From: an uncultured Candidatus Rokubacteria bacterium
GTDB lineage: Bacteria; Methylomirabilota; Methylomirabilia; Rokubacteriales; DASRDR01
DNA length: 64,000 nt
Assembly: GCA_963812945.1 (NCBI GenBank)
Contig: CAWEXD010000004.1
Span: 77,178 to 141,177 of the forward strand
Reading direction: 5' to 3'
Shown: positions 1-46,846 of the stretch, one piece after another
How the letters are laid out: every line of letters begins with the position of its first letter
Numbering within the stretch: the stretch's first letter is position 1
Translations under genes and position numbers: made by a program
Notes under the pieces: model-generated
Databases searched by the model: none
Told to the model about the DNA's origin: nothing
What the model saw: the letters and a program-made list of their open reading frames with translations, nothing else

Positions 1-1
1 C

Positions 2-1303
2 GACGGCTCGGTCCTGGTGGACGGGCACGACATCGTCCAGGTCGGCCCGGCTCGCGAGGTGCGCCCGCCCCGTCCCCCCGATCGCGTCATCGACGGCCGG
101 CGCCGCGTCGTGCTGCCGGGCTTCGTGGACACGCACGTCCACCTGTCGGAGCACCTGAACCGGGGCCTGCTCCTCGACGACATCCCCGTCGACCGCTACC
201 TCTCGGACTGGCTGATCCCGCTCTACTCCGTCATCACGCCGGAAGAGGAGCAGGTCTCTGCCCTTCTCGCCTGCGTCGAGATGATCCGCACCGGCACGAC
301 CACGTTCTGCGAGGCAGGCACGCTCTTCGACGTCGCGGCGGTGGCCGACGCGGTGGAGACGATCGGGATGCGGGCCGTCCTCGGGCGCTGGTCCTGGGAC
401 CTCGTCACGGGGCCGGGGCGGATGCGGCAGACGACGGCGGACGCGCTCCGGGAGAACGAGGCGATGCTGGGCGCGGTGCACGGTCGCGCCGGCGGGCGGA
501 TCCACGCCTGGCCGCTGCTCCTTGGCTTCGGCACGTGCTCGCCGGCGCTCACGCAGGGCGCCCACGCGCTGGCCGACCGGCACGGCGTCGGCTGGGGCAT
601 GATGCACTTCGCCTCGCATCCATCCCGCCGCACGTCCGACCGCGTGCCCCTGGCGGAGCTCGACGCGCTGGGCGTCCTGACCCCTCGGACAAAGCTCGCC
701 CACATGGTCTACGTCGACGAGCAGGACATCGCCCTCCTGGCGCGGCGCGGCGTCAAGGTCTCCCACTGCCCGACGGCGGGGCTCAAGCACACGAAGGGGC
801 TCAGCGCTCACGGGCGGTTCGTCGAGATGCTCGACGCCGGGGTGTGCGTCTCCCTCGGAGGCGACAGCGGCAACGGCTCGAACCACTTCGACATGCTGCG
901 CCTCATGTACCTCGCCGCCACGATCTACAAGGACGCGCGGCTCGACGTCGGCGTGATGCCCCCGGAGCGCGTCCTCGAGATGGCGACCCGGCTGGGGGCC
1001 GAGGCGCTCCTGCTCGACAGCGCCATCGGCTCGATCGAGCCCGGGAAGCGCGCCGACCTGGTCCTCCACGACCTCGACACCCCCGAGTGGCGACCGCTCC
1101 TCAACCCGGTCAACAACCTGGTCTACGCCGCGACGGGCGCCAGCGTCCGGACGGTCCTGATCGACGGCCGGGTCGTGCTCGACGAGGGGCGCCTGACCAC
1201 GCTCGACGAGCGCGCCCTCTTCGAGCGCGTGGAGGTCCTGGCCCGCCAGCAGATCGCGCGCGCGGGCCTCGCCATCGAGTCCAAGTGGCCCGTGGTCGGA
1301 TGA
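2..1303 (+). CDS. amidohydrolase-family metal-dependent hydrolase (chlorohydrolase/deaminase-like), 5' end outside window
   Basis: ORF 17..1303 stays open in frame to the window edge; N-terminal HxH metal motif (GFVDTHVHL) after a DG..DIV.VG lead-in typical of amidohydrolases; TGA at 1301-1303. Confidence 0.8.
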   Translation, partial: DGSVLVDGHDIVQVGPAREVRPPRPPDRVIDGRRRVVLPGFVDTHVHLSEHLNRGLLLDDIPVDRYLSDWLIPLYSVITPEEEQVSALLACVEMIRTGTTTFCEAGTLFDVAAVADAVETIGMRAVLGRWSWDLVTGPGRMRQTTADALRENEAMLGAVHGRAGGRIHAWPLLLGFGTCSPALTQGAHALADRHGVGWGMMHFASHPSRRTSDRVPLAELDALGVLTPRTKLAHMVYVDEQDIALLARRGVKVSHCPTAGLKHTKGLSAHGRFVEMLDAGVCVSLGGDSGNGSNHFDMLRLMYLAATIYKDARLDVGVMPPERVLEMATRLGAEALLLDSAIGSIEPGKRADLVLHDLDTPEWRPLLNPVNNLVYAATGASVRTVLIDGRVVLDEGRLTTLDERALFERVEVLARQQIARAGLAIESKWPVVG

Positions 1304-2466
1304 CGCCCGCGGCGCTGCCCCCGGATCACCCGGCGCCCGTGAACCCCCCGTCGCTCGAGCGCTGGTTCCAGCGCGTCTTCGGCGACAGCGACGGGACACA
1401 CTTCGGCTCGGGCTGGATGTCGGGCACCGCCAGCGTGTTCCTGGGCGGGCTGGCTCTCCTCGGCGTGGTGGCGTTCTGGTTCCCGGGCGCGTTCTCCTCG
1501 GCGGCGTTCCGGGCCCACTACCCGATACCGCTGCTGCGCGCGCTGCTCGAGGTCACGATCGGCCTCGCGTTCCTGCTCGGCGCCGTCTCGCTCGTCCTGC
1601 GCCGGCGCAAGGTCCTGGGGCTCGCCGGGATCGGCCTCGCCCTCGCCGCCACGCTGGCCGGCGGCGGCAGCGTGCCGATCGAGAGCCGGTTCGACCAGCA
1701 GATCACGCTCGGGCTCGACTGGTTCCTGCTGAACCTGCTCCTGCTCGCGCTGGTGTTCGTGCCGCTCGAGCGCGCCTTCGCGCGCCTGCCGCAGCAGACG
1801 ACCTTCCGGCTCGGCTGGACCACCGACGGCGCCCACTTCATGGTGAGCCACCTGGCGGTCCAGGCGCTCACCTTCATGACGCTGCTGCCGGCAACCGCGC
1901 TCGCGACCGTGTGGCAGCCCGAGGCGCTGCGGCGAGCGATCCAGGGACAGCCGCTCGCGCTGCAGGCGCTCGAGATCCTCGTGGTCGCCGACTTCACCCA
2001 GTACTGGGTGCACCGCGCCTTTCACGCGGTGCCCTGGCTCTGGCGCTTCCACGCGATCCACCACTCGAGCCGCGCCCTCGACTGGCTGGCGGGCTCGCGC
2101 CTGCACGTGCTCGACGTCGTCGTCACGCGCGGCCTAGTGATGGTGCCGGTGTTCCTGCTCGGCTTCGCGCAGCCCGCGCTCTACGCGTACCTCCTGTTCG
2201 TGTCGTTCCACGCAGTGTTCATCCATGCCAACGTCCGGTTCCGGCTCGGCTGGCTCGATCGCGTGATCGCCACGCCCCGAGCGCATCACTGGCACCATGC
2301 GGTCGCGCCGATCGACAAGAACTTCGCCGTGCACCTGCCGGTCCTCGACGCCGTGTTCGGCACGCTCCACCTGCCCGGCGACGAGTGGCCGGCCGCCTAC
2401 GGAATGGCGGGGCAGCCGGTCCCGGAGGGCTGGGGGGCACAGCTCGTACACCCGTTCCGCCGTTAG
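1300..2466 (+). CDS. fatty acid hydroxylase / sterol desaturase superfamily integral membrane protein
   Basis: ATG at 1300 overlaps upstream stop (ATGA); His boxes HRAFH, HAIHHSS, HHWHH; several hydrophobic segments; the annotated ORF start 535 is a spurious extension overlapping the amidohydrolase. Confidence 0.8.
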   Translation: MTPAALPPDHPAPVNPPSLERWFQRVFGDSDGTHFGSGWMSGTASVFLGGLALLGVVAFWFPGAFSSAAFRAHYPIPLLRALLEVTIGLAFLLGAVSLVLRRRKVLGLAGIGLALAATLAGGGSVPIESRFDQQITLGLDWFLLNLLLLALVFVPLERAFARLPQQTTFRLGWTTDGAHFMVSHLAVQALTFMTLLPATALATVWQPEALRRAIQGQPLALQALEILVVADFTQYWVHRAFHAVPWLWRFHAIHHSSRALDWLAGSRLHVLDVVVTRGLVMVPVFLLGFAQPALYAYLLFVSFHAVFIHANVRFRLGWLDRVIATPRAHHWHHAVAPIDKNFAVHLPVLDAVFGTLHLPGDEWPAAYGMAGQPVPEGWGAQLVHPFRR

Positions 2467-3540
2467 CAATCCGCGCCGCCGCCCGCGGCCCGGCGTCAGC
2501 CGGCGGAGCCCCCATTGCAGCTCCTTGCGGATGACGCGGCGGGCGATCGTGAAGGGCAGCTTCACGCCATAGACCTCTTGGACGATGCGGCACACCAGCC
2601 AGGGGATCCCCGTCACCCGGGCGACCCGCTCGATCCAGCGATACTCGGGCGTCGCCCCCATGACACGCACGGTGGGAACGACGCGCCCGAAGGTGACGAG
2701 GTCCGAAAAGGTGCTGGCGGTGGTCCCGACGAACGCGTCGGTCGCGCGCAGGAGGAGCAGGTCGACGAGGGCGTCCTGGATGGCTTCCGGCGTGCCCCGG
2801 TCCAGGCTGTGCGGCGTCGTGTGGACCAGCCGGTCTCCGTACCGGGCCCGGAAGATCTCGCGCACACCTTCACGACGCGTCGGTCTCCCCTCCGGCTCCG
2901 GCGCGCCGTCGTCGGAGCAGAGCAGGATGCCCGCCTCGGGCATCGTGGCCAGGAACCGGTCGACCGCGACGAGCATCGCCGCCGTGTTCCACGACCGGTC
3001 GGGACGAACCCGCACGAAGTCGCCGCGCCGCGCATGCACGCCGATCATGCGCGCTCGGAAGCGCCGCGCCCGGAACGCCGCCACCCGATCGGCGACGGCA
3101 GCGCACGGCTCGAGGTGCCCGAGCAGCTCCGCGCAGCGCACGGCCAGGGCGCGGTGCGCGGGGAAGCGGTCCGGGAAGGTGAGCCATTTCGCGCTCCAGC
3201 GCAGGAGGTGCCGCTCCGGGGCGACGAGGAGGTCCTCGGCCTCCCGGGCGGGGTGGTCCGGGTGGGCCGGCCGCGCCAGCTCGCGCGGGAGCTGGTCGAC
3301 GTCGATCACCGGCCAGTCGCCGGCGAACAGCTCGCGAAACGCCGCACCGCATGCCGGAGTCCGGGGCCAGATCAGCGTGAACGTTCGGCCCGAAGCCTCG
3401 GCCAGCGCCATGCCGGACAGGAGCACCCGCAGGCGATTGCTCAGACCGGCACGGGTGAACACGGTGAGCGTCCGGGGCCCGCTCGTGGTGCCCTGGGGTA
3501 ACCCCGGGGTCAGATCCTCGTCGTGACCCACGCCGCCCAC
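2134..3540 (-). CDS. fucosyltransferase-like glycosyltransferase (GT11/GT23/NodZ-like motif set)
   Basis: motif I GLSNRL, HxRRxD motif (IGVHARRGDF) and FVGTxxSTFS motif in order; GTG start chosen just upstream of the conserved region (ATG absent); first in-frame stop only at 2134, so the 3' end overlaps the desaturase gene. Confidence 0.55.
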   Translation of the reverse strand: MGGVGHDEDLTPGLPQGTTSGPRTLTVFTRAGLSNRLRVLLSGMALAEASGRTFTLIWPRTPACGAAFRELFAGDWPVIDVDQLPRELARPAHPDHPAREAEDLLVAPERHLLRWSAKWLTFPDRFPAHRALAVRCAELLGHLEPCAAVADRVAAFRARRFRARMIGVHARRGDFVRVRPDRSWNTAAMLVAVDRFLATMPEAGILLCSDDGAPEPEGRPTRREGVREIFRARYGDRLVHTTPHSLDRGTPEAIQDALVDLLLLRATDAFVGTTASTFSDLVTFGRVVPTVRVMGATPEYRWIERVARVTGIPWLVCRIVQEVYGVKLPFTIARRVIRKELQWGLRRLTPGRGRRRGLLTAERVYELCPPALRDRLPRHSVGGRPLVAGQVERAEHGVEDRQVHGEVLVDRRDRMVPVMRSGRGDHAIEPAEPEPDVGMDEHCVERHEQEVRVERGLREAEQEHRHHH

Positions 3541-3547
3541 GGTCTCG

Positions 3548-4570
3548 TCACTCGGCGCCGCCCGAGACCCCCTGGCCGGGGAGGCGCCCGAGAGTCGGGA
3601 CCGGGCGCCCCGCGGCATCGGCCAACGCGCCGGGCCGACGTTCCTGCCGGCCCAGCCGCCCGGAGCGCGCCCACGAGCGTAGGGCCCGGCCGGAACAGAC
3701 GGTGAGCACGAGCCAGGCGTTGAGCACGTGGAGCAGCCGCACCGTGACCATCGCCGGGAAGGGCAGGCGACCGGTCCAGTCCCGAGGGACCGGGCATCGC
3801 CACGACCTGAGCGGCTTGAACATGCACTCCCGGCGCGGAGCCACGCCGAGCTCGTGGAGAGACTGGTGACCAAGGGCGATCCTCAGGCTCTTCCGGTAGA
3901 CGGCGCCGAGCGTGGCCCGGGCCGCGTGGCTGACCAGGGCGTCGGGGGCATACGCGACGCGCTCGCCCGCCCTCCACAGCCTATGGCCGAACTCGCGGTC
4001 GCCGCCCGTGACGAGCTCGGCGCGGAAGGGCCCATGCCGCTCGATCAGGTGAGCGTAGACCATCATGTTCGCGGTCGCCGCATAGTGCCGATTGACGTAC
4101 GCCTGCTGGTTGAAGCGGATCGCGGAGTCCCAGTACTCGTAGACGTTCGGCCGGGCCCCTCGGTAGGTGACCACGATGCGGCCCCCCACGATGGCGGCTC
4201 CCTCGGCCCTGAGCGCGCGAACACCGCTCTCGAGCCAGGTCGGCGCGGGAACGCAGTCGGCATCGGTGAAGGCCAGGATCTCGCCACGGGCGACGCTCAG
4301 CCCGCGGTTCCGGGCGGCATACGAGGTCCGGATCCGGTCCTCCACCACCAGCAAGAGCCGAGACCCTGCGCGGGCGCGAAGGTCCTCGACCACGGCCCGG
4401 GTGCCATCCGTGGATCCGTTGTCCGCGACGATGATCTCGTAGCGGTCCGGCGGATACGTCTGGTCGAGGAGAGCCCCCAGGCACGCCCGGATCCCGGGCC
4501 GGTCGCGCAGGACCGGCACCACGACCGATACGAGCGGGTCGGAGCCCCCCCGGTCAGTCATCGTCTCCAT
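3548..4570 (-). CDS. family 2 glycosyltransferase
   Basis: ATG (METMTD) then VSVVVPVL.D, ADNGSTDGT and TDAD (DxD) GT2 motifs; stop 3548 lies 8 nt above the start of the next gene on the same strand. Confidence 0.8.
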   Translation of the reverse strand: METMTDRGGSDPLVSVVVPVLRDRPGIRACLGALLDQTYPPDRYEIIVADNGSTDGTRAVVEDLRARAGSRLLLVVEDRIRTSYAARNRGLSVARGEILAFTDADCVPAPTWLESGVRALRAEGAAIVGGRIVVTYRGARPNVYEYWDSAIRFNQQAYVNRHYAATANMMVYAHLIERHGPFRAELVTGGDREFGHRLWRAGERVAYAPDALVSHAARATLGAVYRKSLRIALGHQSLHELGVAPRRECMFKPLRSWRCPVPRDWTGRLPFPAMVTVRLLHVLNAWLVLTVCSGRALRSWARSGRLGRQERRPGALADAAGRPVPTLGRLPGQGVSGGAE

Positions 4571-4741
4571 GTGGCGGCCTCCGACCGCTGCGCGTGGCGC
4601 CGTCGCTTCACCGCCGAAGGGTCCCAACCCGGCGGACTCCCCGGCGCTGCTCCGCGATACCCTACCACGAGGCCGAGTCGATGCCGGAGAACTGCGATGC
4701 GATCCGCTCACGCCGAGCCGCGCGGGATCGACGGCGCCGTC

Positions 4742-5665
4742 TCAACCGTCCTCCCGGCGCGCCGCGAAGTACTGCCGCACGTAGGCGTGGAGGTCCGGCT
4801 TGTCCGAGCTCCATCGCCAGCAGCCGGCATCGTCGTGCGCGATGTCGTGCCCGGGATCGAATCGGAACGGGGCGAGACCGAGGTGACGGGGCCGGATGCC
4901 GCGATCCTCGAGCCGCCCGTGCCAAAGATGGAACACGTCCCCCTCCAGACAGCCGACTCGACCGGCAACCGCGCGGTGAAACCGGCTCGCCCACGGGCGG
5001 TAGCGCGCCTCCTGGGCCGGATTCATGGCGTGCGTGCCGATCACGGTCTCGGGGGTCCCGAACGCGGCGCAGGTCATGGCGGAATCGCCCCCTCCGACGA
5101 TGCAGGCATCGTAGAATCCGTGCCGCGCGAGCACCTCACGCCGGTAGGCCCACCCGAACCCGTTGACCGTTGTGCCCGGGCGCCGCTCGGAGGTGGTGCT
5201 GAGGACGGTCATGGGATCCGACCCGCGCACGACGGCGTTCGCGGACGCCTCCTGCGCGAAGATCACTGCGTCCCGGGGCGGGCGCTCGGGGGCCCACTCA
5301 CGACGGAGGTGGTGGAGGCGCGTGAACAGCTGGACGGCGGAGACGCGCTCCAGCAGTGCGGTCGCCGCGGCACCCCAGTCCTCGCGCTCGAAGATGACGT
5401 CGCAGTCCAGGCTGGCCACCACCGTGCACTCGTCGGGGAGCCGCCCGAGCGCGACGTTGAGGAGCCTCTCCTTCTGCCAGAGGACATCACGGCCTCGCAG
5501 GCGCACGAGGAGGTCCGCGTCGTCGTCGGCCAGCTCGAAGCGATCGCCGTAGCCGAGCTCCACGGCGAGCAGGGGAGCGGCGAGACGGCGCCGGAATTCC
5601 CGGAAGTTCTCGAGCCGGCGGCGGTACCCGATCGGATTGAAGTACGACGTGATCGCCCAGAGCAT
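4742..5665 (-). CDS. conserved GT-A-like protein of unknown specificity (putative glycosyltransferase)
   Basis: starts MLWAITSYFNP (same start as paralog 9131..10054); DCD (DxD-like) motif SLDCDVIF; always paired with the GT2 gene. Confidence 0.55.
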   Translation of the reverse strand: MLWAITSYFNPIGYRRRLENFREFRRRLAAPLLAVELGYGDRFELADDDADLLVRLRGRDVLWQKERLLNVALGRLPDECTVVASLDCDVIFEREDWGAAATALLERVSAVQLFTRLHHLRREWAPERPPRDAVIFAQEASANAVVRGSDPMTVLSTTSERRPGTTVNGFGWAYRREVLARHGFYDACIVGGGDSAMTCAAFGTPETVIGTHAMNPAQEARYRPWASRFHRAVAGRVGCLEGDVFHLWHGRLEDRGIRPRHLGLAPFRFDPGHDIAHDDAGCWRWSSDKPDLHAYVRQYFAARREDG

Positions 5666-5792
5666 GCGGGGCCAACGACGGCGCCGCGTGGGCAAGGGAA
5701 TCACCGGTCCCTGTCCGCCCCACTCATCGCGCCGCAGTCGCCCTGGCTCAGGGTCAGAGACACCTCCCGCGGCTCCTGGCCGCGCCGGCCGA

Positions 5793-5822
5793 AATCTACG
5801 CCGATCCTCGAATCGCCGTCAA
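5793..5822 (-). promoter_or_regulatory. sigma-70-like promoter TTGACG-N18-TAGATT upstream of GT-A/GT2 cassette 1
   Basis: -35/-10 hexamers and 18-nt spacing conserved with copy 2 while spacer sequence diverged; about 130 nt upstream of ATG 5665. Confidence 0.35.
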
Positions 5823-5972
5823 GCGGTGTGGCGCTGAGGAGCCGGCTGGTGGTGACGCGACACGGGCCGCGCCGGCAGGCCCGCAGTTTGGTGCGCCAGC
5901 GTCGGTCGTGCGAAAATCGACGCTCGCCAGCATGCTCGGGCCCATTGACGACAGCGCGGGAAGAAGGGGCGG

Positions 5973-6893
5973 ATGACGGCGGCGCCCGAGCCGGGCGCGG
6001 CCGCCGTGACGAGCGACCCCGAACGGCTCGGTCCCGACCTCGAGGCCCTCGTGGCCGCTTTGGATGCCCCCGTCCGGCGCATCGTGACGCTCACGAGGCT
6101 CCGGGCGCCGGGCGTGGAGCACGCATCGTTCCGGCTCGAGCTCCTGGACGGCCGCGTCCTCAAGGGCCGGCGCCTGCCGAGCGCGGAGCACGCGGCGCGG
6201 GTGGCGACCATCCTCGACGTCATGGACCGGCGGCACTTCCCGCCCGTGATCGCCCGTCTCGGCGAGGCCCTCCTGGAGGAGTGGCGCCCCGGGGAGCCGC
6301 TGGATCACGCGACCCTGGGCCCGGGGCCAATGCGCCAATGCGGGGGGATTCTCGGGGCCGTGCATGGCGCCGTGCCCCCGGCGGTCGAGGTCGATAAGCG
6401 GGCGCGCCCCGAAGCGCGGCTGGCCGCGGTGCGATGGCAGTCCCGCAAACTCGTCAGGGCCGGCGCGCTGTCGGCTGCCTCGCGGGATCACCTCGTCGCG
6501 CTCCTCAAGGCTCAGCTCCCCGCTGACCCGGCGATCGGGGTGATCCACCGCGATTTCTGCGCCGAGAATCTCGTGTGGGACGCATCGGGACAGCCCCATG
6601 TCGTCGACAACGAGACCATGCAGATCGGGGCGCTCGACTTCGACCTGGCCCGGACCTGGTACCGCTGGCCCATGACGGACACTCAGGCAACCGCGTTCCT
6701 CGACGGGTACTCGGCCCATCGCAGCCCGGAGAGCTTCCTGGCGAGCTTCGTCTTCTGGACCCTCGCCGTGCTCGTGGACGTGTCGCGCTATCACCTGCGC
6801 GTCGGCACGGATCGGGCGCAGGGCGCCGTCGATCTCCTGCAGGCGATCCTCGACGGCTCCCCGGCGGTCGGCCGGTGGTGCCCGGCCCGATGA
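5973..6893 (+). CDS. aminoglycoside phosphotransferase / choline-kinase-like (APH family) kinase
   Basis: catalytic loop IHRDFCAENLVWD and DFD motif; kinase-like fold phosphotransferase signature. Confidence 0.75.
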   Translation: MTAAPEPGAAAVTSDPERLGPDLEALVAALDAPVRRIVTLTRLRAPGVEHASFRLELLDGRVLKGRRLPSAEHAARVATILDVMDRRHFPPVIARLGEALLEEWRPGEPLDHATLGPGPMRQCGGILGAVHGAVPPAVEVDKRARPEARLAAVRWQSRKLVRAGALSAASRDHLVALLKAQLPADPAIGVIHRDFCAENLVWDASGQPHVVDNETMQIGALDFDLARTWYRWPMTDTQATAFLDGYSAHRSPESFLASFVFWTLAVLVDVSRYHLRVGTDRAQGAVDLLQAILDGSPAVGRWCPAR

Positions 6894-8083
6894 CCGAGCC
6901 GGGCTCGGTCGAGGACCGCCTGTCGGCTCATCGCCGTGGCCTCCGGTACGCTGACCTGGCCATCGGCGTGGCCTGCCCCGAGCCCTCGTACCTCGTCTGG
7001 CTCGAGGAGTTCCTGGCCCCGGCCTTCGAGCCCACGGCGGCCGAGGGGTGCGACCGCTGGGTGGTGCTGGACCTGGACGCGTCGCGCCATGCCGCGACCC
7101 TGGCCCGCGGCCCGAGCCCGGACGCGGTCCCGGTGCCGTGCTTCGTCCTCGACGGCGGCACCGTGTGCCATCCGGAGTGGAACGGTAGCGGCCCGGACGA
7201 GCGGATCCTGTTCGACGCGCACTATCAGGCCTTCTACTGCGTCGAGCGCCGGAGTGGGCACGTCCGGATCCTCGCGACGCCGCGGCCCAATCTCACCCGG
7301 ATCGCGCTCATGCGGGTCGTCCGGGAGCTGGCGATGGCCGCGTCTCTCGCGCGCGGCGGCCTGCTTCTTCACGGCGCCGCGTTCGCGATCGGCGGGCGCG
7401 GAGTCGTCCTCGCCGGACCGAGGCGCGCCGGAAAGTCGACCCTGCTCCTCCACGCGCTCCAGGCGGCGGGGGCCCTGTTCATCTCGAACGACCGGGTGCT
7501 GGCCCGCCAGGACCAAGGCCACGTGGTGCTGCGCGGCATGCCCACGATCGTCAACCTGCGGCCAGGCACGCTCGCCATGTTTCCCGCCGTGTCGTCCCGC
7601 ATCCGGGCGCGGGGCTATCACCCTGCCCGGACCCTGGCCCAAGCCTCTCGACCGGGCGCGCGGCCGCGAGTCCCCCGCCCGGACGGCGCCGTCACGCTAA
7701 CGCCGCTCCAGTTCTGCGAGGCGGCGCAGGTCGGAGCGCTTCCCCAGGCAGAGGCGTGGCGACTCGTCTTTCCGCGGGTGCGCGAGTCGGGGGTCGGGAT
7801 CGAGCTCGACCCGCTGGACCCCGGGACGGCGGCCCGGCGGCTCCGCGCGGCGCTGTTCGCCGCCGAGCGCCCCGGCCAGGTCGCCGAGGCCTTCGCGGGC
7901 CCGGACGGCGCGGCGGACGTCGGCGAGGCGGCCCTTCAGCGCCGCGTCCTCGACCTCGCGGCCCGGGTGCCGTGCTACGACGCCGCGCTCGGCGTCGAGG
8001 CGTACGGCGGGGCCGGAGCGGCCGACGAGTTCATCGCTCGGCTGGCCGGCCCGACACCGACCGTCGCGGGGCCCCGCTCTTAG
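6890..8083 (+). CDS. HprK C-terminal-domain-like P-loop kinase
   Basis: ATG at 6890 overlaps APH stop (ATGA); Walker A LAGPRRAGKSTLLL preceded by LLHGAAFA.GGRGV, as in the HPr kinase/phosphorylase C-domain. Confidence 0.65.
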   Translation: MTEPGSVEDRLSAHRRGLRYADLAIGVACPEPSYLVWLEEFLAPAFEPTAAEGCDRWVVLDLDASRHAATLARGPSPDAVPVPCFVLDGGTVCHPEWNGSGPDERILFDAHYQAFYCVERRSGHVRILATPRPNLTRIALMRVVRELAMAASLARGGLLLHGAAFAIGGRGVVLAGPRRAGKSTLLLHALQAAGALFISNDRVLARQDQGHVVLRGMPTIVNLRPGTLAMFPAVSSRIRARGYHPARTLAQASRPGARPRVPRPDGAVTLTPLQFCEAAQVGALPQAEAWRLVFPRVRESGVGIELDPLDPGTAARRLRAALFAAERPGQVAEAFAGPDGAADVGEAALQRRVLDLAARVPCYDAALGVEAYGGAGAADEFIARLAGPTPTVAGPRS

Positions 8084-9134
8084 CCTTCGGCCCGTCGACG
8101 GTCGTATGGCCCTCGGCGGCGCGCACCCTCGCGGCGGTGGCGGTTGACGTCGTCGCGTCCAGTCGACGGTCCTCCGAGATCAGCCGCCGGGGACGTTCCC
8201 AGGTCCCGAGACCCTGGACGAGGCAGATCATGAGCCGGAACCAGGCGTGGAGATGGTGAACCAGCCGAACCGCGACGCTGGTTGTCAGCGGCAGACGACC
8301 CGTCCAGTCCCGAGAAACCGGGCATCGCCACGACTTGATCAGCTTGAGCGCGCACTCCCCGGGCGGCACCACGCCGAGCCGGTGGAGAGGCCGCTGGCCG
8401 AGGGCCAGTCTGAGGCCCTTCCGGTAGACGGCCTCAAGCGTGGCCCGGGCGGGATGGGCGACGATCGCGTCGGGAGCATACGCGAGGCGCTCCCCAGCCT
8501 TCCACAGGCGGAATCCGAACTCACGGTCGCCACCGGAGACCAGCTCGGGCCGGAACGGTCCATGGCGCTCGATCACGCGGGCCTGGACGAACAGGTTCGC
8601 AGTCGCCGCGTAGTGGTGCCTCACGTACAACTCCTGGTTGAATCGCACCGCGGAGTCCCAGTACTCGTAGGCGTTCGGCCGGGGCCCCGCGAAGGTGACC
8701 ACGATCCGGCCCCCCACGCATGCGGCTCCTGAGGCCCGGAGCGCGCGGACACCCTGCTCGAGCCAGGTCGGAGCGGGAACGCAATCGGCATCGGTGAACG
8801 CCAGCACCTGGCCCCGGGCCACGCGAAGCCCGCGATTCCGGGCGGCATAGGAGGTCCGGACCTGGTCCTCCACCACCAGCGAGAGGCGGGCGCCCGCCCG
8901 GGCGCGAACGCGCTCGACGATGGCCCGGATGCCATCCGTGGACCCGTTGTCGGCGACGATGATCTCGTAGCGGTCCGGCGGATAGGTCTGCTGGAGTAGG
9001 GCCTCCAGGCACGTCCCGATCACGGGGCCGTCGTGCAGGACGGGCACCACGACCGACACGAACGGGTGCAAGGGACCCCGTTCCGGCAGGTGGGGGGCCG
9101 GCGGGGCCGCGCGGGATCCGTCCCCGGCGTTCAC
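8031..9134 (-). CDS. family 2 glycosyltransferase, paralog of 3548..4570 (about 80% aa identity in the GT2 domain)
   Basis: VSVVVPVLHD, ADNGSTDG, TDAD conserved; no ATG, GTG at 9134 overlaps the upstream stop (GTGA); start uncertain (TTG/GTG alternatives 9070-9134). Confidence 0.65.
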   Translation of the reverse strand: MNAGDGSRAAPPAPHLPERGPLHPFVSVVVPVLHDGPVIGTCLEALLQQTYPPDRYEIIVADNGSTDGIRAIVERVRARAGARLSLVVEDQVRTSYAARNRGLRVARGQVLAFTDADCVPAPTWLEQGVRALRASGAACVGGRIVVTFAGPRPNAYEYWDSAVRFNQELYVRHHYAATANLFVQARVIERHGPFRPELVSGGDREFGFRLWKAGERLAYAPDAIVAHPARATLEAVYRKGLRLALGQRPLHRLGVVPPGECALKLIKSWRCPVSRDWTGRLPLTTSVAVRLVHHLHAWFRLMICLVQGLGTWERPRRLISEDRRLDATTSTATAARVRAAEGHTTVDGPKAKSGAPRRSVSGRPAER

Positions 9135-10054
9135 CCGTCTTCCCGGCGCGTCTCGAAGTACTGCCGCACGTAGGCGTGAAGGTCCGGCTTGTCCGAATTC
9201 CAGCGCCAGGAGCCGGCATCGTCCAGCGCGATGTCGCTCCGGGGATCGAACCGGAAGCGGCTCAGGCCGAGATGGCGCTGACGGGTCCCGCGATCCTCGA
9301 GCCGTCCGTGCCAGAGATGGAAGAGATCCCCATCCAGGCAGCCGACCCGACTGGCGACCGAGCGGTGAAACGGGCTCGCCCACGCGCGGTAGCGCGTTTC
9401 CTGGGCCGGATTCATGCCCTGCACGTCGACGACGACCCCGGGACACCCGAACGCGGCGCAAGCCATGGCGTTATCACCGCCTCCGACAATGCACGCGTCG
9501 TAGAATCCGTGCCGCTCGACCACCTCGCGCCGGAAGGCCCAGCCGAACCCAGGGGCGACCACGCTGGCGTTGCGCTTGAACAAGGGAGCCAGGGCCACCG
9601 CGGGATCCGACCCGCGACCAATCGTGCTCGCGGATGACTCCTGCGCGAAGTCCACCGCCTCGCGGAGCGCGCGCCCGGGAACCCAATCGCGACGGAGGTA
9701 GTGGACGCGCGCGAACAGCTGGACGGCGGAGAAGCGCGCCAGCAGCGCGTGGGCGGCCGTCGCCCAGTCTTCGCGCTCGAAGATGACGTCGCAGTCCAGA
9801 CTTGCCACCGCCGTGCACCCGGTGGGGAGCCGCCCGAGCGCAACGTTGAGGAGCCGCTCCTTCTGCCAGAGGACATCACGCCCCCGCAGGCGCACGAGGA
9901 GGTCCGCGTCGTCGTGCCCCAGCTCGAACCGGTCGCCGTAGCAGAGCTCCACCGCGAGCAGGGGGACGGCGAGGCGGCGACGGAACTCCCGGAAGTTCTC
10001 GAGCCGGCGGCGGTATCCGGCGGGATTGAAGTACGAGGTGATCGCCCAGAGCAT
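9131..10054 (-). CDS. GT-A-like protein, paralog of 4742..5665
   Basis: ATG start MLWAITSYFNP; SLDCDVIF motif conserved; nucleotide similarity extends into the upstream promoter region. Confidence 0.6.
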   Translation of the reverse strand: MLWAITSYFNPAGYRRRLENFREFRRRLAVPLLAVELCYGDRFELGHDDADLLVRLRGRDVLWQKERLLNVALGRLPTGCTAVASLDCDVIFEREDWATAAHALLARFSAVQLFARVHYLRRDWVPGRALREAVDFAQESSASTIGRGSDPAVALAPLFKRNASVVAPGFGWAFRREVVERHGFYDACIVGGGDNAMACAAFGCPGVVVDVQGMNPAQETRYRAWASPFHRSVASRVGCLDGDLFHLWHGRLEDRGTRQRHLGLSRFRFDPRSDIALDDAGSWRWNSDKPDLHAYVRQYFETRREDG

Positions 10055-10190
10055 CCGGCGCGCGACTAGCGAGGGTGCTCCGCCCGGACCAGCCGCTCTA
10101 CCATGCGAAGGGGCTCGCCGTTCTTGCCGCTTCGGACCAACAACTCAGGGACTCAGGTTCCTTCCGCGGCTCCCGGCCGCGTCCAGGCGA

Positions 10191-10220
10191 AATCTACGCC
10201 GGCACCCCGGGGGCCGTCAA
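10191..10220 (-). promoter_or_regulatory. sigma-70-like promoter TTGACG-N18-TAGATT upstream of cassette 2
   Basis: same hexamers and spacing as 5793..5822; about 135 nt upstream of ATG 10054. Confidence 0.35.
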
Positions 10221-10239
10221 GGCGGGCGGCGTCGGGACG

Positions 10240-11550
10240 TCAGTATCCTTTGCCCGCAATCCTGAGCACGGAGGGCAGCCAGAGCGAGATGATGGGAAAC
10301 GCGATCAGGATCGCGAGGCGCACGACGTCGGCCACCACGAAGGGCATGACGCCGCGGAACAGCGTGGGGGTCGGCACCTGCGGCAGGAGCGCGTTGATCA
10401 CGAACAGGTTCATGCCGACCGGCGGGCTGATCAGGCCGATCTCCACCACGACCACGATGAGGATCCCGAACCACACGGGATCGAGGCCGAGGCTCACGAC
10501 GACCGGGAAGAACACCGGCACCGTCAAGAGGATCATCGACAGCTCTTCCATGGCGGTGCCGAGGATCACGTAGATCGCGCACATCGCCGCCACCACCACC
10601 GCGGGGTGGAGCGCGAAGCGCTCCACGAAGTGCTGGAGGTCCCGCGGCATCGACGTGAAGTTGATGAAGTTCGCGAACACGAGCGCGCCGATCAGGATCA
10701 TGAACAGCATCGAGGTCGTCCGCGCCGACTCCAGCAGGACGTCGCGCAACGCGCTCCAGCTGAGCGACCGGCGCGCGAGGGCGAACACGAACGCGCCGAA
10801 CGCGCCGATCCCCGCCCCTTCGGTGGCCGTGAAGATCCCCGCGTAGATGCCCCCGATCGACAGGGCGAAGAGCGCGACAACGCCCCAGACCCCTCGCAGC
10901 GCGCGCCACCGGTCGGCCCACGACGAGCGCTCGCCGGCCGGACCGGCGGCCGGCTCGCGCCAGACCATGTACTGGACCGCCAGGCACAGGAGGAACGCGG
11001 CGAGGATGCCGGGCAGCACCCCCGCGGCGAAGAGCCGGCCGATGTTGGTCTCGGTCATGATCCCGTAGATGACCATGATCGTGGACGGCGGGATCAGGAT
11101 GCCGAGCGTGCCGCCGGCGGCGATCGAGCTCGCGGCGAGCTTGTCCGAGTAGCCCAGCTGGCGCATGGGCGGGTACGCGACGCGCGTCATGGTGGCGGCC
11201 GTGGCGATCGAGGAGCCGCAGATGGCGCCGAACCCGGCGCAGGCCACGATGGTCGACATGGCGAGCCCGCCCCGCCAGTGGCCGATGAAGGTGTGGGCGG
11301 CCCGGAACAGCTCCTGCGACATCCCGGCCCGGGCCACCAGGTTGCCCATGAGGATGAAGAGGGGCACGACCGAGAGCTCGTAGTTGATCCCGGCCGCGAA
11401 CGTCGTCTGGGCCAGCTGGTCGAGCGCCGCCGGGATCCCGCGCTTCCAGGCGAACCCCGCCCCGCCCACGATCAGCATGGAGAACGCGACCGGGATGCGC
11501 GCGAAGGCGAGCCCGAGGAGGCCCGCGAAGGCGAGGAGGGTCTCGGTCAC
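10240..11550 (-). CDS. dctM: TRAP transporter large permease
   Basis: about 12 TM DctM-family sequence; GTG start overlaps dctQ stop (GTGA). Confidence 0.85.
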   Translation of the reverse strand: MTETLLAFAGLLGLAFARIPVAFSMLIVGGAGFAWKRGIPAALDQLAQTTFAAGINYELSVVPLFILMGNLVARAGMSQELFRAAHTFIGHWRGGLAMSTIVACAGFGAICGSSIATAATMTRVAYPPMRQLGYSDKLAASSIAAGGTLGILIPPSTIMVIYGIMTETNIGRLFAAGVLPGILAAFLLCLAVQYMVWREPAAGPAGERSSWADRWRALRGVWGVVALFALSIGGIYAGIFTATEGAGIGAFGAFVFALARRSLSWSALRDVLLESARTTSMLFMILIGALVFANFINFTSMPRDLQHFVERFALHPAVVVAAMCAIYVILGTAMEELSMILLTVPVFFPVVVSLGLDPVWFGILIVVVVEIGLISPPVGMNLFVINALLPQVPTPTLFRGVMPFVVADVVRLAILIAFPIISLWLPSVLRIAGKGY

Positions 11551-12134
11551 GTGGTGTAGCCGGCGGACACGGAGCGAACGCGGCGGGCGCCGGACAGATA
11601 GCCCCACACGATGACGAGGCACGCGACCGCGGCGAGCGCCGACATCACCGCGAAGACCCGGCTGAACGGGCCGTGCGGGATGTGGAGCGTCATCGTCACC
11701 TCGTGGGTCCGCATGTGGCTCGCCGAGAGCACCCACAGCCGCCACGCGACGAAGGCCAGCGCCGCGGTGCTGATCGCGTTGACCAGCACCCGTTGCCAGC
11801 GCGCGAAACCAGCGGAGACGAGGTGGTCGAGCACGTCGATGGAGACGTGACCCTCGCGCGCCGTGACGAGCGGCAGCGCGCAGAAGATCAGCATGCCCAT
11901 CAGGAACTCGGTGATCTCGTACGCGCCGTAGACGGGCCGCGTGAAGAGCTTGCGGCCCGTGACGTCGACGAAGGTGAGCACCATCATCGCGAAGAGAACG
12001 GTCGCGGCGACCGTTCCGAGCACCCGGCCGGCCCAGGAGCCGAGCCGGCCGGGGAACAGGTCGTCGAGGGGCGAGGGGGAGGTCGTCAGCCCGCCGCCGG
12101 GCGCGCCCGCCCTCTCGCCTCCCGACGCGGTCAA
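11547..12134 (-). CDS. dctQ: TRAP transporter small permease
   Basis: 4-TM small protein between dctP and dctM; N-terminal extent uncertain. Confidence 0.7.
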   Translation of the reverse strand: MTASGGERAGAPGGGLTTSPSPLDDLFPGRLGSWAGRVLGTVAATVLFAMMVLTFVDVTGRKLFTRPVYGAYEITEFLMGMLIFCALPLVTAREGHVSIDVLDHLVSAGFARWQRVLVNAISTAALAFVAWRLWVLSASHMRTHEVTMTLHIPHGPFSRVFAVMSALAAVACLVIVWGYLSGARRVRSVSAGYTT

Positions 12135-12135
12135 G

Positions 12136-13164
12136 CTACTTCTTCTCGGCCGCCACCTTCTCGACCTCGGCGCGGAAGGCCCGGATCACGTCCTTGCCGT
12201 TCAGGCCCATCTTGTCCATCTTGGCCGCGTAGTCGGCCTCGAGCTTGTCGGTGAGCTTCTTCAGCTCGCCGATGAACGCCGGCGACATCTCCTGCATCTT
12301 CCCGCCGGCCGCCTTCATCGCCTCCCGGCCCTCCTGGTCGGCCTTGTCCCAGCCGCCCCCGGCCAGGCGGGCGAAGTTCTCCTGGGACACCGACAGGATC
12401 GCGTCCTGGTCGGCCTTCGGAAGGCCGTCGAACTTCTTCTTGTTCATCGCGAACCAGAACGAGGAGCTGTAGAGCCCGCCCCGGACGTAGGTGGTGTACG
12501 GGACGAGGTTGGCGATGTTGAAGCTCTTGAGCGACTCGGTCGGGAACATGATGCCGTCGGCGATGCCCGCCGAGAGGATCTCGTACGACTTGGGGGCCGG
12601 CTGCGTGATCACGACCCCGCCGAAGGCCTCGACGATCGCCTTCGGCACGTCGCCGCCCACGCGGATCTTCTGCCCCCGGACATCGTCCGGGTTCAGGATC
12701 AGCTTCTTCGAGTGGTGCATGAGGCCAGGCCCGTGCGTCATGACCCCGAGGAGCTGCACGTCCTTGTGGATCCCGGCCTTCTCGATGTGCGACTTGTGGG
12801 TCCGCCAGAGGGCTACCCCGTTGTGCACCGCGGTCTCGCCGAGCGCCGGCAGCTCGGCGATGAGGTACGGCATGAAGCGCTCCGGCTGGTAGCCGTACGT
12901 CGACCACGCGACGTCGACCTGCCCGCTGACGACCGCGTCGTAGTGCTGGTTGGGCGCGGCGATCGGCTTGGGCAGCATGGTCACCTTCACGCGGCCCGCG
13001 GTCGCCTTCTCCACCTGCGCCGCCCACGGCTCCATCATGTACTTCACCACCGGGTGGTTGGGCGCCACCCAGTTGGACATGGTGAGCTCGGTCTGCGCCG
13101 CGGCCGACGCGCCGAGCCCGGTGAAGAGACCCCCGATGAGAATCGCCAGCACCGTGCGGATCAT
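12136..13164 (-). CDS. dctP: TRAP transporter substrate-binding protein
   Basis: ATG at 13164 preceded by GAGGAGGG SD; signal peptide MIRTVLAILIGGLFTGLGASAAAQ; DctP family body. Confidence 0.85.
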   Translation of the reverse strand: MIRTVLAILIGGLFTGLGASAAAQTELTMSNWVAPNHPVVKYMMEPWAAQVEKATAGRVKVTMLPKPIAAPNQHYDAVVSGQVDVAWSTYGYQPERFMPYLIAELPALGETAVHNGVALWRTHKSHIEKAGIHKDVQLLGVMTHGPGLMHHSKKLILNPDDVRGQKIRVGGDVPKAIVEAFGGVVITQPAPKSYEILSAGIADGIMFPTESLKSFNIANLVPYTTYVRGGLYSSSFWFAMNKKKFDGLPKADQDAILSVSQENFARLAGGGWDKADQEGREAMKAAGGKMQEMSPAFIGELKKLTDKLEADYAAKMDKMGLNGKDVIRAFRAEVEKVAAEKK

Positions 13165-13306
13165 GGATGCACCCTCCTCATCGAATGCGCGCCGGGTTTG
13201 CGGGTGCCCAAAGCGCGTCGCCACGACACCCCCGCGCCGGATCGTAGGCGAAAGAGACCACGGTTCCGGGTAGGCCGTCAAGCCGTTCGGCCCCGCGCCG
13301 ACGAGC

Positions 13307-15049
13307 CTAGGACGCGGGCGCGCCCGGCTCGCCGAGGAGCTCGGCGTGGGCCCGCTCCCGCTCCCGGTCGATCTGCTCCGGGGTCGCGCCCAGGCCCTCC
13401 AGGATCGCCACGGTGAAGGCCAGCGCCACCTCCCCTTCGCCCGAGAACGCCTCGGCCCCGGCCTGGCGGAGGGCGGGCAGCTCGCGCACATAGGTCGAAC
13501 GCGCCAGCACCTGGATCCCCGGGTTCAGCTCCCGCGCCAGGCGCACGATCTCCTCGCCACCGAGGCCGGAGGCGCTGAGGATCAGGCTCCCGGCCTCGGC
13601 GACCCCGGCGCTCCTCAGCGCCGCGCCGTCGCCTGCGTCACCGTACACCGCCGGCACCCCTGCCTCGCGCAATCGACGCACGGTCTCCAGGTTGAGCTCC
13701 ACGATGGTGGGCTCGATGTCGTTCTCCCTGAGGAGTCGGGCGACCGTCCGCCCGACCGGTCCGTAGCCCACGACGACCGCCCGGTGGCGGCTCGAGCGGC
13801 GCGGTACGCCGTCGGTCGCGGCTTCCGGAGTGGACGGGCGCTCCCCTGCCGCCGGGCGGGGCCGGCGGCGGCGCGAGAGCCACGCGTTCACGGGGTCGAC
13901 CAGCCGGTAGAGGAGCGGGTTCAGGGTGATCGAAACGATGGCCGCCGCGACGAGGGTGTTCATGGCAGCCGCCGGGAGGACGCCGCGCTGGCTACCGAGC
14001 AGCCCCAGGATGAAGGAGAACTCGCCGATCTGGGCCAGGGCGACGGCCACCGCCAGGCCGACCCTGAGCGGGTAGCCGAGCAGGCCCATGAGCGCGAGCG
14101 CGACGAGCGTCTTGCCCAAGAGGACGATCGCGAGGGTCGCGGCCACCAGCCCCGGCGCTTCCAGGAGGTGGCCCGGGTCGAACAGCATGCCCACGGAGAC
14201 GAAGAACAGGACGGCGAAGGCGTCCCGCATGGGCAGAACCTCGGACGCCGCACGGACGCTGAATTCCGAGCGCCCCACCACCGTCCCGGCGAGGAACGCC
14301 CCCAGCGCCATCGACACCCCGAACAGCGTGGCGGATCCGACCGCGATGCCCAGCGCCAGCACCAGGACGGTGAGGCTGAACAGCTCCCGGGAGCGCGTCC
14401 TTGCCATGTGCTCGAGCAGCCACGGAATGACCCGCCCGCCGACGAGCAGGGTGAAGGCGACCAGGGCGGCGATCTTCACTGCCGTCACGGCGAGGGCCAT
14501 CGACACCCGGGCCGGGCCGTCCGCCTGGGATCCGACCAGGGCCGGAAGCAACACGAGCACGACCACCGTGAACACGTCCTCGACGATCACCCAGCCGACC
14601 GCGATGTGACCGGTCGGCGTGTGGAGGTCGCGGTTGTCCGTCAGCACCCGGACCAGCACCACGGTGCTGGTCACCGAGATGGCCAGCCCGAACACGATCC
14701 CGGCGGTCCAGCTCCAGCCGAGGGCGTGGGTCACCACCGCCCCCAGCGCCGTCGCCAGGACGATCCGGCCCACGGCTCCGGGGATCGCGACGCGCCGGAC
14801 CGACCAGAGCTGCTCGAGGTGGAAGTGCAGGCCTACGCCGAACATCAGGAGGATCACGCCGATCTCGGCCAGCTGCTCCGCCAGATGCCGGTCGGCGACG
14901 AAGCCGGGGGTGTAGGGGCCGACGGCGATTCCGGCCACGAGATAGCCGACGATCGGCGACAGCCCGAGGCGCTGCGTCACGTATCCCAGGGCGAGGGCGG
15001 CGGCGAGGCCACCCGTGAGCGTCAGGATCAGGTCAAGGTTGTGCGGCAC
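13307..15049 (-). CDS. CPA2 cation:proton antiporter (Kef-type) with C-terminal RCK/TrkA-N domain
   Basis: GTG start MPHNLDLILTL; 12-13 TM Na_H exchanger body then Rossmann-like AVVVGYGPVGRTVARLL. Confidence 0.85.
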   Translation of the reverse strand: MPHNLDLILTLTGGLAAALALGYVTQRLGLSPIVGYLVAGIAVGPYTPGFVADRHLAEQLAEIGVILLMFGVGLHFHLEQLWSVRRVAIPGAVGRIVLATALGAVVTHALGWSWTAGIVFGLAISVTSTVVLVRVLTDNRDLHTPTGHIAVGWVIVEDVFTVVVLVLLPALVGSQADGPARVSMALAVTAVKIAALVAFTLLVGGRVIPWLLEHMARTRSRELFSLTVLVLALGIAVGSATLFGVSMALGAFLAGTVVGRSEFSVRAASEVLPMRDAFAVLFFVSVGMLFDPGHLLEAPGLVAATLAIVLLGKTLVALALMGLLGYPLRVGLAVAVALAQIGEFSFILGLLGSQRGVLPAAAMNTLVAAAIVSITLNPLLYRLVDPVNAWLSRRRRPRPAAGERPSTPEAATDGVPRRSSRHRAVVVGYGPVGRTVARLLRENDIEPTIVELNLETVRRLREAGVPAVYGDAGDGAALRSAGVAEAGSLILSASGLGGEEIVRLARELNPGIQVLARSTYVRELPALRQAGAEAFSGEGEVALAFTVAILEGLGATPEQIDRERERAHAELLGEPGAPAS

Positions 15050-46426: not shown

Positions 46427-46846
46427 ATGCGGCACATCCGCGTCACGGCATTCACGCTCGCCGCGTTGGGCGTCCTGGCGACGGCGCCGGCGGCCCAGAC
46501 CCCTCCAGTCGCGGCCACGGCCGCCGTCCCCGCGGACAGGCTCATCGGCGTGTGGCGAGGGCACTGGAGGGCGGATGACGGGGCGCAGCGCGGGGCAGTC
46601 GAGATGATCTTCGGCCACGAGCCCGGGCGCCCCACCATCGTCGCGCAGATGACCTTCCTCGACGGGAGCCGCGCGGACACGGTACGCCGCGAGGGGCGGC
46701 TGACACGCCAGGGTGCCTTCTTCGACCTGGTCGGAGGCGGCACCATGGTGCTGACGCTCTCGTCGGGCCGCCTCATCGGAGAGTTCGCCGGCGGCCCGGA
46801 CGTACCGACCCGGTTCGGGTCAGTCGAGCTGACTCGGCGCGGCTGA
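46427..46846 (+). CDS. secreted hypothetical protein
   Basis: SD GGGAGG; signal peptide MRHIRVTAFTLAALGVLATAPAAQ. Confidence 0.45.
   Translation: MRHIRVTAFTLAALGVLATAPAAQTPPVAATAAVPADRLIGVWRGHWRADDGAQRGAVEMIFGHEPGRPTIVAQMTFLDGSRADTVRREGRLTRQGAFFDLVGGGTMVLTLSSGRLIGEFAGGPDVPTRFGSVELTRRG

Follow-up and report, generated by a model that had tools for sequence, protein, structure and literature searches.

In the pseudomycoidin pathway, the C-terminal Ser receives one to several phosphates from PsmK, a kinase of the HprK family (PMC6993621, PMC8498205), and placement of one or two hexoses on the phosphate requires the NTP-transferase PsmN (PMC6993621). PsmN has been modelled on the ANT(2'')-type aminoglycoside nucleotidyltransferases (PMC6993621), and rumen lasso peptide clusters carry genes for an HPr kinase, an "uncharacterized nucleotidyltransferase" and a family 2 glycosyltransferase (GT2) (PMC7533575). 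Here we analyzed a stretch of 64,000 nucleotides (the window; contig CAWEXD010000004.1, positions 77,178 to 141,177) from an uncultured Candidatus Rokubacteria bacterium of the phylum Methylomirabilota, in which the gene of an aminoglycoside phosphotransferase (APH)-fold kinase is translationally coupled to that of a P-loop kinase resembling HprK and phosphoenolpyruvate carboxykinase (PEPCK), hereafter the HprK-like kinase. The stop codon of the former overlaps the start codon of the latter in an ATGA at 6890-6893. The core of the locus consists of four genes in two divergent coupled operons, GT-A-like followed by GT2 on the minus strand, and APH followed by HprK-like on the plus strand.

Similar to the pseudomycoidin and paeninodin clusters (with the kinases PsmK and PadeK), loci that carry this kinase pair recurrently combine an HprK-superfamily kinase with a nucleotidyltransferase, glycosyltransferases (GTs) and an ABC exporter. 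Compared to the lasso clusters, they lack a lasso cyclase, a B1/B2 protease, PqqD and a precursor peptide, and they possess an extra APH-fold kinase that is coupled or fused to the HprK-like kinase. Moreover, unlike the lasso kinases, the window kinase has no Hpr_kinase_C match and has a PEPCK-like N-terminal domain. We propose, at roughly even odds (a probability of about 0.5), that the kinase pair and the accompanying sugar-transfer enzymes build a phosphate-containing glycoconjugate on a non-peptide acceptor, be it a small molecule, a lipid or a glycan. A phospho-glycosylation module is proposed because of the PsmK/PsmN precedent together with a weak match to FomB, whereas a non-peptide acceptor is favoured because of the kinase folds, the nearest relatives of the APH kinase and the census of neighbouring genes.

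Two kinases also occur as a pair in fosfomycin producers, where FomA belongs to the amino-acid-kinase family and does not have the APH fold, and FomB is described in NCBIfam as a phosphonate monophosphate kinase. The HprK-like protein of the window weakly matches the P-loop core of FomB, a likeness that would fit a first kinase making a monophosphate and a second one extending it. Unlike the FomA/FomB loci, the window has no phosphonate genes.

Folds and catalytic cores of the two kinases

The best curated match of the HprK-like protein is NCBIfam HprK_rel_B (TIGR04355), with 51.8 bits against a cut-off of 200 and positions 138-222 of 351 aligned. FomB (NF000361) scores 23.8 bits against a cut-off of 400, the HPr(Ser) kinase model TIGR00679 scores 15.9 against 240, and HprK_rel_A is also matched far under its cut-off. 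Membership in a curated HprK-type family (HprK/P, HprK_rel_B or FomB) was rejected on these scores. Against Pfam-A (E<=0.01), neither Hpr_kinase_N nor Hpr_kinase_C was found, and the sole match was a sub-threshold AAA_14. Homologues of the protein bear a precomputed Pfam label for ScmC (PF27840), marked as weak. TIGR04355 and ScmC, the best curated matches, are similar to the window protein in length (~350-400 amino acids, aa). We take TIGR04355 to be part of an ATP-grasp/CofD-like "GAK" cassette and ScmC to be named after a radical-SAM/PqqD peptide cassette ("SynChlorMet"); neither of these sets of partner genes is seen here.

Alignment of 26 HprK-like homologues revealed the invariant residues H161, G176, G181-K182, N200-D201-R202, R137 and R145. 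The P-loop core, composed of H161, G176-x4-G181-K182-S183 and N200-D201-R202, aligns with the segment "H...GDSGVGKS...ADDRV" of HprK/P (PDB 1jb1), which is also the best PDB sequence match of the family profile, over the His / P-loop / DDR core. Thus the His / GxxxxGK[ST] / (N/D)D core is shared with HprK/P, except that Asn takes the place of the first Asp of HprK's "DD" motif in this family. The full-length fold resembles PEPCK: the AlphaFold2 model, with a predicted local distance difference test score (pLDDT) of 90.9, matches ATP-dependent PEPCK over its full length in Foldseek, with an E value of 1e-8, a probability of 1.00 and ~400 aligned columns. A structural kinship of HprK/P and PEPCK is established. 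Model and alignment together identify the window protein as a P-loop kinase of the PEPCK/HprK fold, in which both domains are present and the catalytic core is intact. Unlike that of HprK/P, its context in the window gives no link to HPr or catabolite control, and no HPr/ptsH gene was found among the scanned neighbours. A word-indexed search collected 59 clusters of HprK-like homologues, three of which are APH and HprK-like fusions of ~670 aa, and an exhaustive profile search returned 785 representatives (E<=1e-30), so that the family comprises at least 785 clusters at 50% identity.

The APH-fold kinase matches PF01636 with 66.8 bits against a cut-off of 23.2. In an alignment of 28 partner sequences from its subfamily (A4), K64, H192-x-D194, N199 and D212 are invariant, and these correspond to the ATP-binding Lys (K64), the HxDxxxxN catalytic loop and the metal-binding Asp (D212). 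The retained invariant residues suggest that both kinase families are catalytically competent. The nearest solved relatives of the APH profile are homoserine kinase (2ppq), amicoumacin kinase (6sui), APH(2'') and APH(3'). Kinases with APH/protein-kinase-like folds that act on glycans include the kinase domain of WbdD, WaaP and KdkA; to these, and to salvage pairs of a kinase and a nucleotidyltransferase such as AmgK/MurU and LicA/LicC, the APH-fold kinase bears a resemblance without sequence-level support. Like such glycan-directed pathways, some of the pair loci possess ABC-2 (Wzm-type) exporters; unlike WbdD, WaaP and KdkA, the APH profile finds its best solved matches among homoserine, amicoumacin and aminoglycoside kinases.

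Partner genes across phyla

We collected 79 genomic loci in addition to five annotated metagenomic loci (numbered with an L prefix), scanned with a profile from a 9-sequence alignment, a 26-sequence alignment having proved too divergent, and tabulated their architectures with hidden Markov models (HMMs) built on the loci themselves. Single-linkage clustering of the neighbouring open reading frames (ORFs) merged the core families via fusions and over-long ORFs; the clusters were split by the Louvain method and the HMMs rebuilt. Loci flanked on each side by 5 kb or more are termed full-flank (n=52), and partners were counted within 8 kb.

The pair is found in more than 10 phyla, including Methylomirabilota/Rokubacteria, Gemmatimonadota, Binatia, Planctomycetota, Acidobacteriota, Chloroflexia, Myxococcota, Cyanobacteria and Clostridia, and also in the cultured Haliea sp. 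E1-2-M8. The locus of the latter (L019, NZ_JAUTDR010000023.1) contains ABC, HprK-like, PF14907, GT1 and APH genes and is apparently the sole one among the 79 from an isolate genome, as opposed to metagenome-assembled genomes (MAGs). In 68 of 85 loci, and in 48 of the 52 full-flank ones, an APH gene adjoins the HprK-like gene on one side or the other or is fused to it, as expected of the functional unit that we take the pair to be. Fusions of the two kinases are represented by P0012-14 and by L045, L047 and L057, and the exhaustive profile search added further long proteins, of 579-1036 aa, that include the HprK-like region. The order of the kinase genes is reversed in several loci, e.g. L004, and therefore their adjacency is more than inherited synteny.

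At least one GT (GT2, GT4, GT1/MGT, GT28 or the 307-aa family described below) lies within 8 kb in 47 of the 52 full-flank loci, a raw count of 90%. The check set by the preliminary description, namely a search for the pair without GT neighbours in other genomes, thus gave the opposite result. The most frequent partners outside the window are the "NTP_transf_5" nucleotidyltransferase (PF14907), present in 37/52, and an ABC exporter, in 18/52, to which ABC-2 permeases add 7 members; the 307-aa family is present in 15/52. With the window's own clade removed (n=48), the numbers are 44 for APH, 43 for any GT and 37 for PF14907. The only PF14907 relative in the window is a sub-threshold one (26.8 bits against 31.2) at 47580-48566 on the minus strand, 40 kb from the pair. 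A metallophosphoesterase gene (46820-47602, minus strand) follows directly downstream of it, and the two overlap by 23 nucleotides (nt).

The 307-aa protein has no Pfam, NCBIfam or PDB sequence match. The AlphaFold2 model of its copy b (pLDDT 88.7) resembles GT-A enzymes of the PDB in Foldseek, namely K4CP, PcManGT, WrtF, heparosan synthase (HS2) and hyaluronan synthase, with E values of 1e-6 to 1e-5. In D87-x-D89, its DxD metal/nucleotide-sugar motif, the first Asp is invariant, while conservation reaches 90% or more at C88 and D89. The family, with identities typically of 50-55%, comprises at least 3339 clusters at 90% identity, all of them labelled "hypothetical". None of the 120 listed homologues bore a precomputed Pfam match, and a new GT family might be defined from this set. 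Across several phyla it accompanies the pair in 17-18 loci, often divergently oriented as in the window (e.g. L005, L031 and L044). Away from the kinases (loci L085-L090), members adjoin Methyltransf_24, CapK-like adenylating, TupA-type ATP-grasp and rhamnosyltransferase-like domain genes.

Both GT2 copies of the window match PF00535, with 101.4 bits for copy a and 100.9 bits for copy b against a cut-off of 23.3. Their best NCBIfam match is MftF (TIGR03965), a GT2 that glycosylates a small molecule; with 134 bits (a) and 138 bits (b) against a cut-off of 280, membership was rejected. Unlike MftF systems, no mycofactocin-type genes were noted among the scanned neighbours in the window. In other loci, the GT1 partners match the MGT, OleI and Mgt families, i.e. 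the macrolide-GT family.

These GT1 matches, together with ABC exporters, would also suit an island for inactivation of xenobiotics or antibiotics, in which resistance-like kinases, a nucleotidyltransferase, GTs and efflux ABC proteins jointly detoxify an environmental compound. The APH profile does match amicoumacin kinase, APH(2'') and APH(3'), the HprK-like protein weakly matches the FomB resistance or self-resistance model, and PsmN was modelled on ANT(2''). We nevertheless hold such a role to be very improbable: every match to a resistance model is far under its cut-off, the window partners are GT2 and GT-A proteins instead of MGT-type ones, and fused or coupled sets that sit beside sugar-nucleotide genes and GTs in more than 10 phyla are atypical of resistance genes. 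As a separate candidate, anti-phage defence was rejected, since PADLOC gave no match for either kinase, GT-A, GT2 or PF14907, and for the ABC exporter a generic ATPase match only.

Pfam assignment of 275 otherwise unassigned neighbour genes yielded ABC-2 permeases (7), radical SAM proteins (5), GT28 (4), ADH (4) and natural-product-type O-methyltransferases (4), in addition to P450, UDP-glucose dehydrogenase, GT92, sulfotransferase, DegT and Epimerase_2. The GT partners vary while the kinases and PF14907 stay constant, a pattern that fits a shared unusual donor. According to this alternative, the APH-fold protein would be an anomeric sugar kinase of the NahK/AmgK type, and the second kinase and/or the nucleotidyltransferase would make an activated donor for the GTs. 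The order kinase, nucleotidyltransferase, transferase is familiar from AmgK/MurU, NahK/GlmU and LicA/LicC/LicD, and the nearby UDP-glucose dehydrogenase, DegT and Epimerase_2 genes agree with it. This donor-making role seems unlikely to us, as PsmN was modelled on ANT(2'')-type enzymes and not on sugar-1-phosphate nucleotidylyltransferases, no nucleotidyltransferase lies beside the pair in the window, and the second kinase would be left without an obvious role.

Two further features of the pair loci were observed. A family of 262-287 aa without Pfam or NCBIfam match adjoins GT1/MGT-like and PF14907 genes in 10 of them (L049, L050, L053, L060 at 13133-13921, L066, L069, L075, L078, L079 and L081). 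In addition, two diverged pair loci with different partners occur in one MAG (L006 and L084, MFD02242.bin.2.73), and likewise on a single contig ~30 kb apart (L059 and L071, CAWAXD010000015.1), which suggests that the module diversifies within a genome.

Acceptor class and proposed route

Near the pair in the window, no precursor peptide, PqqD/B1, B2 protease or Asn-synthetase-like cyclase was found, as the preliminary description had stated for precursor peptide and PqqD. The statement also holds across the collected loci. Among the 275 neighbour genes of 80 loci, no hallmark of peptides that are made on the ribosome and modified afterwards (RiPPs), that is PqqD, lasso cyclase or protease, has two or more members. 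For small ORFs, we clustered all those of 18-130 aa within ±5 kb of 85 loci. Because alternative-frame ORFs within genuine genes dominated the raw clustering, the regions that align between loci were masked; thereafter, no small-ORF family was conserved except among near-identical Acidobacteriota loci. The 22-aa ORF of the window (5908-5976), which overlaps the APH start in an ATGA, is not kept as a peptide in the related loci L001 and L002.

These observations bear on a competing explanation, in which the HprK-like kinase, aided by the APH kinase, would phosphorylate Ser/Thr in a specific protein or in a ribosomal peptide, like PadeK and PsmK, and the GTs or the nucleotidyltransferase would then glycosylate the phosphate, the precursor being encoded elsewhere or too variable to be recognized. 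The only pairs of an HprK-type kinase and a nucleotidyltransferase that have been characterised act on lasso peptides; the only characterised systems in which GTs and an ABC exporter join such a pair are lasso clusters of Firmicutes, and pseudomycoidin tailoring is the closest analogue. Further hints in the same direction are the weak precomputed ScmC label, a faint Asn_synthase match on the contig of one fusion protein, a 47-aa ORF just 5' of APH in L003, and ABC exporters with fused transmembrane and nucleotide-binding domains, which are typical of RiPP clusters as well. Yet no small-ORF family is kept in the unmasked intergenic space of the 85 loci, no RiPP hallmark recurs, the peptide encoded by the sole upstream mini-ORF of the window is not conserved, small-molecule kinases are the closest relatives of the APH subfamily, and the HprK-like protein has the two-domain architecture of PEPCK. 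We therefore regard peptide or protein tailoring as fairly unlikely. The suggestion of a non-protein substrate in the preliminary description may hold at the level of substrate class, being favoured by the small-molecule-kinase relatives of APH, the PEPCK-like fold, the GT1 partners of the macrolide-GT family and the lack of a recurring RiPP hallmark.

For the glycoconjugate on a non-peptide acceptor, we infer the class of substrate, the order of the steps and the linkage between phosphate and sugar as follows. The APH-type kinase would phosphorylate a hydroxyl of the acceptor, and the HprK/PEPCK-like kinase would then put a further phosphate on that phosphate or on a neighbouring position, much as the HprK-type kinases of lasso clusters attach several phosphates. 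Sugars would be added at or beside the phosphate, in the window by the GT-A and GT2 proteins, and in most other lineages by the PF14907 nucleotidyltransferase with a GT1, GT4 or GT28. Elsewhere, the product may finally be exported by an MsbA-like or ABC-2 transporter.

Several points weigh against this proposal. The HprK-like protein stands outside every curated HprK-type family, and the TM-scores of its model against PEPCK are modest, 0.40-0.47, at a sequence identity of 9-14%. Four full-flank loci carry the HprK-like gene without APH, and therefore the two kinases are not strictly interdependent. Beside the pair in the window, both a PF14907 gene and an exporter are missing, which makes the PsmK/PsmN analogy indirect here; moreover, PsmN is likened to PF14907 by description, not by sequence. 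The 90% co-occurrence of GTs is a raw frequency, no scaffold-forming enzyme is common across the loci, and precursor peptides may be too short or too variable for the ORF-clustering test. It is a considerably more doubtful generalization that the pair defines a widespread, unrecognised kinase-initiated route to phosphate-bridged glycoconjugates, in which a mono- or diphosphate would be installed on a non-peptide acceptor and sugars would follow. As a rule, the pair would be joined in it by a PF14907 nucleotidyltransferase, various GTs and an exporter.

Locus layout, lineage-specific genes and implications

As the window has a G+C content of 71%, genes were called by frame analysis of third-position GC (GC3) together with the ORF list. 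The features are listed in Table 1.

Table 1. Features of the kinase-pair locus, in window coordinates
Feature	Position	Strand	Remarks
FA_hydroxylase-family membrane di-iron enzyme	1300-2466	+	388 aa; PF04116
NodZ/fucosyltransferase-like (FucT-like) protein	2134/2497-3519	-	conserved part ~2497-3483
GT2 copy a	3548-4570/4711	-	downstream of GT-A copy a; PF00535
307-aa GT-A-fold protein copy a	4742-5704	-	divergent from kinase operon
Divergent intergenic region, GT-A/GT2 operon versus kinase operon	5705-5972	.	conserved motif ~5908-5930
APH-fold kinase	5973-6893	+	306 aa; first gene of kinase operon
HprK/PEPCK-fold P-loop kinase (HprK-like)	6890-8083	+	397 aa; coupled to APH
GT2 copy b	8031-9134	-	PF00535
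307-aa GT-A-fold protein copy b	9131-10054	-	GT-A fold from model

Downstream of the four-gene core lies a second, diverged copy of the GT-A and GT2 operon. The two cassettes are paralogous direct repeats, with amino-acid identities of 71% for GT2 and 76% for GT-A, and the 307-aa gene copies share ~84% nucleotide identity across parts of the gene. The 3' end of GT2 copy b overlaps that of the HprK-like gene convergently by 53 nt, and a GTGA joins the stop codon of GT-A copy b to a possible, overlapping GTG start of the same GT2 copy. GT2 copy a probably starts at ATG 4570. For GT-A copy a, whose conserved part is ~307 aa, M14 (~5665) is the likely start. The gene calls of the preliminary description are all borne out. 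The coupling of the APH-like to the HprK-like kinase and the flanking by GT cassettes were recovered, Pfam placed the hydroxylase, both GT2 copies and the APH above curated cut-offs, and the structure model agrees with the GT-A call; the HprK-like call is remote but consistent, with HprK_rel_B at 52 bits and weak FomB and HPr(Ser) kinase matches.

The divergent intergenic region has a single sigma-70-like site (5822-5793, minus strand), and a purine-rich GGAAGAAGGGG stretch precedes the APH ATG. A motif GTGCGA(A/G)AATC(G/A)A(C/T)G..CTCGCC, located ~50-65 nt upstream of the APH start, is kept in the window, L001 and L002 and probably serves as a promoter or operator. A search of window positions 1-12000 against Rfam gave no family. 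In four other loci (L049, L050, L053 and L060), a conserved intergenic stretch lies just 5' of the HprK-like gene, ~1.2-1.3 kb upstream of its stop. This Acidobacteriota stretch surfaced as small pseudo-ORFs such as "RRQSYSNLSVEYIV" and could be a regulatory element.

The hydroxylase matches PF04116 with 104.3 bits against a cut-off of 31, and its translation contains three His boxes (HRAFH, HAIHH and HHWHH), in agreement with the earlier call of a di-iron fatty-acid hydroxylase. An assignment to the ornithine-lipid hydroxylase OlsE (NF052566) was rejected at 117.6 bits against 475. The gene is coupled to an upstream amidohydrolase gene (17-1303) by an ATGA overlap at 1300-1303. Between these two genes, L001 (1640-3277) and L002 (3273-5712) carry a 545-aa gene, accompanied in L002 by a 271-aa gene; therefore, the lineage of the window appears to have undergone a deletion.

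The FucT-like protein has no Pfam match at E<=0.01, and thus none to NodZ (PF05830). With a Pfam-NodZ protein of L004 it shares 28% identity (pairwise E 2e-10), across the HxRRGD and TxxSTFS motifs by which the preliminary description had recognized a fucosyltransferase; its own versions, GVHARRGD and FVGTTASTFS, are kept in the orthologue of L001. Identity to that 337-aa orthologue is 72%, and the homology stops at residue 341. In the remaining part (2134-2497, minus strand), the ORF meets no stop and continues for ~120 residues that are not conserved and lie antisense to the hydroxylase gene's 3' end; either the stop codon was lost or the sequencing introduced an error.

A hydroxylase gene lies near the kinase pair in five loci, all of Methylomirabilota/Rokubacteria (the window, L001, L002, L051 and L084, of which L051 and L084 are divergent paralogous loci), a FucT/NodZ-like gene in four, and an amidohydrolase gene in three. 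Outside this phylum, hydroxylase and FucT-like genes are absent near the pair, except for one NodZ-like gene. The earlier proposal of a hydroxylated, fucosylated lipid as the product is therefore weak, being confined to co-occurrence within the phylum; from that co-occurrence, the two enzymes may decorate or feed the same product in the window's lineage.

The restriction of the hydroxylase, FucT-like and amidohydrolase genes to close relatives or the same phylum, and the rearrangement of the cassettes between the window, L001 and L002, are what one would expect if the pair, the GT cassettes, the hydroxylase and the FucT-like gene belonged to separate pathways and were adjacent by chance. L002, at 67% identity, retains exactly the four-gene core (GT2 and GT-A divergent from APH and HprK-like) without the FucT-like gene and the second cassette, and in L001 the cassette genes stand in another arrangement again. 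It is this exact retention of the core, along with the GT-A family beside the pair in ~17 loci of several phyla, often divergently, and the occurrence in 90% of full-flank loci of some GT no more than 8 kb away, that makes incidental adjacency quite improbable.

In the literature searched, we found no description of a near-obligate pairing of an APH with an HprK/PEPCK-like kinase, of its breadth across phyla, or of its occurrence without RiPP machinery, and the unannotated GT-A family is likewise undescribed there. The superfamilies are known and the logic of phosphorylation followed by glycosylation has a precedent. No member of the HprK-like family, which spans more than 10 mostly uncultured phyla, has been characterised, and the four-gene unit is compact enough for heterologous expression. 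If the proposal of a glycoconjugate on a non-peptide acceptor is correct, it would give a first functional handle on three unannotated families, namely the HprK-like family, PF14907 and the 307-aa GT-A family, and the phosphorylate-then-glycosylate logic, shown only for a few lasso peptides of Firmicutes, would also apply to products other than peptides, made by environmental bacteria. Should the more doubtful generalization to a widespread kinase-initiated route hold as well, that route would need no polyprenyl-phosphate phosphoglycosyltransferases, and metabolites or envelope lipids of a new class would be expected in Methylomirabilota, Acidobacteriota, Planctomycetota, Gemmatimonadota, Binatia and others.

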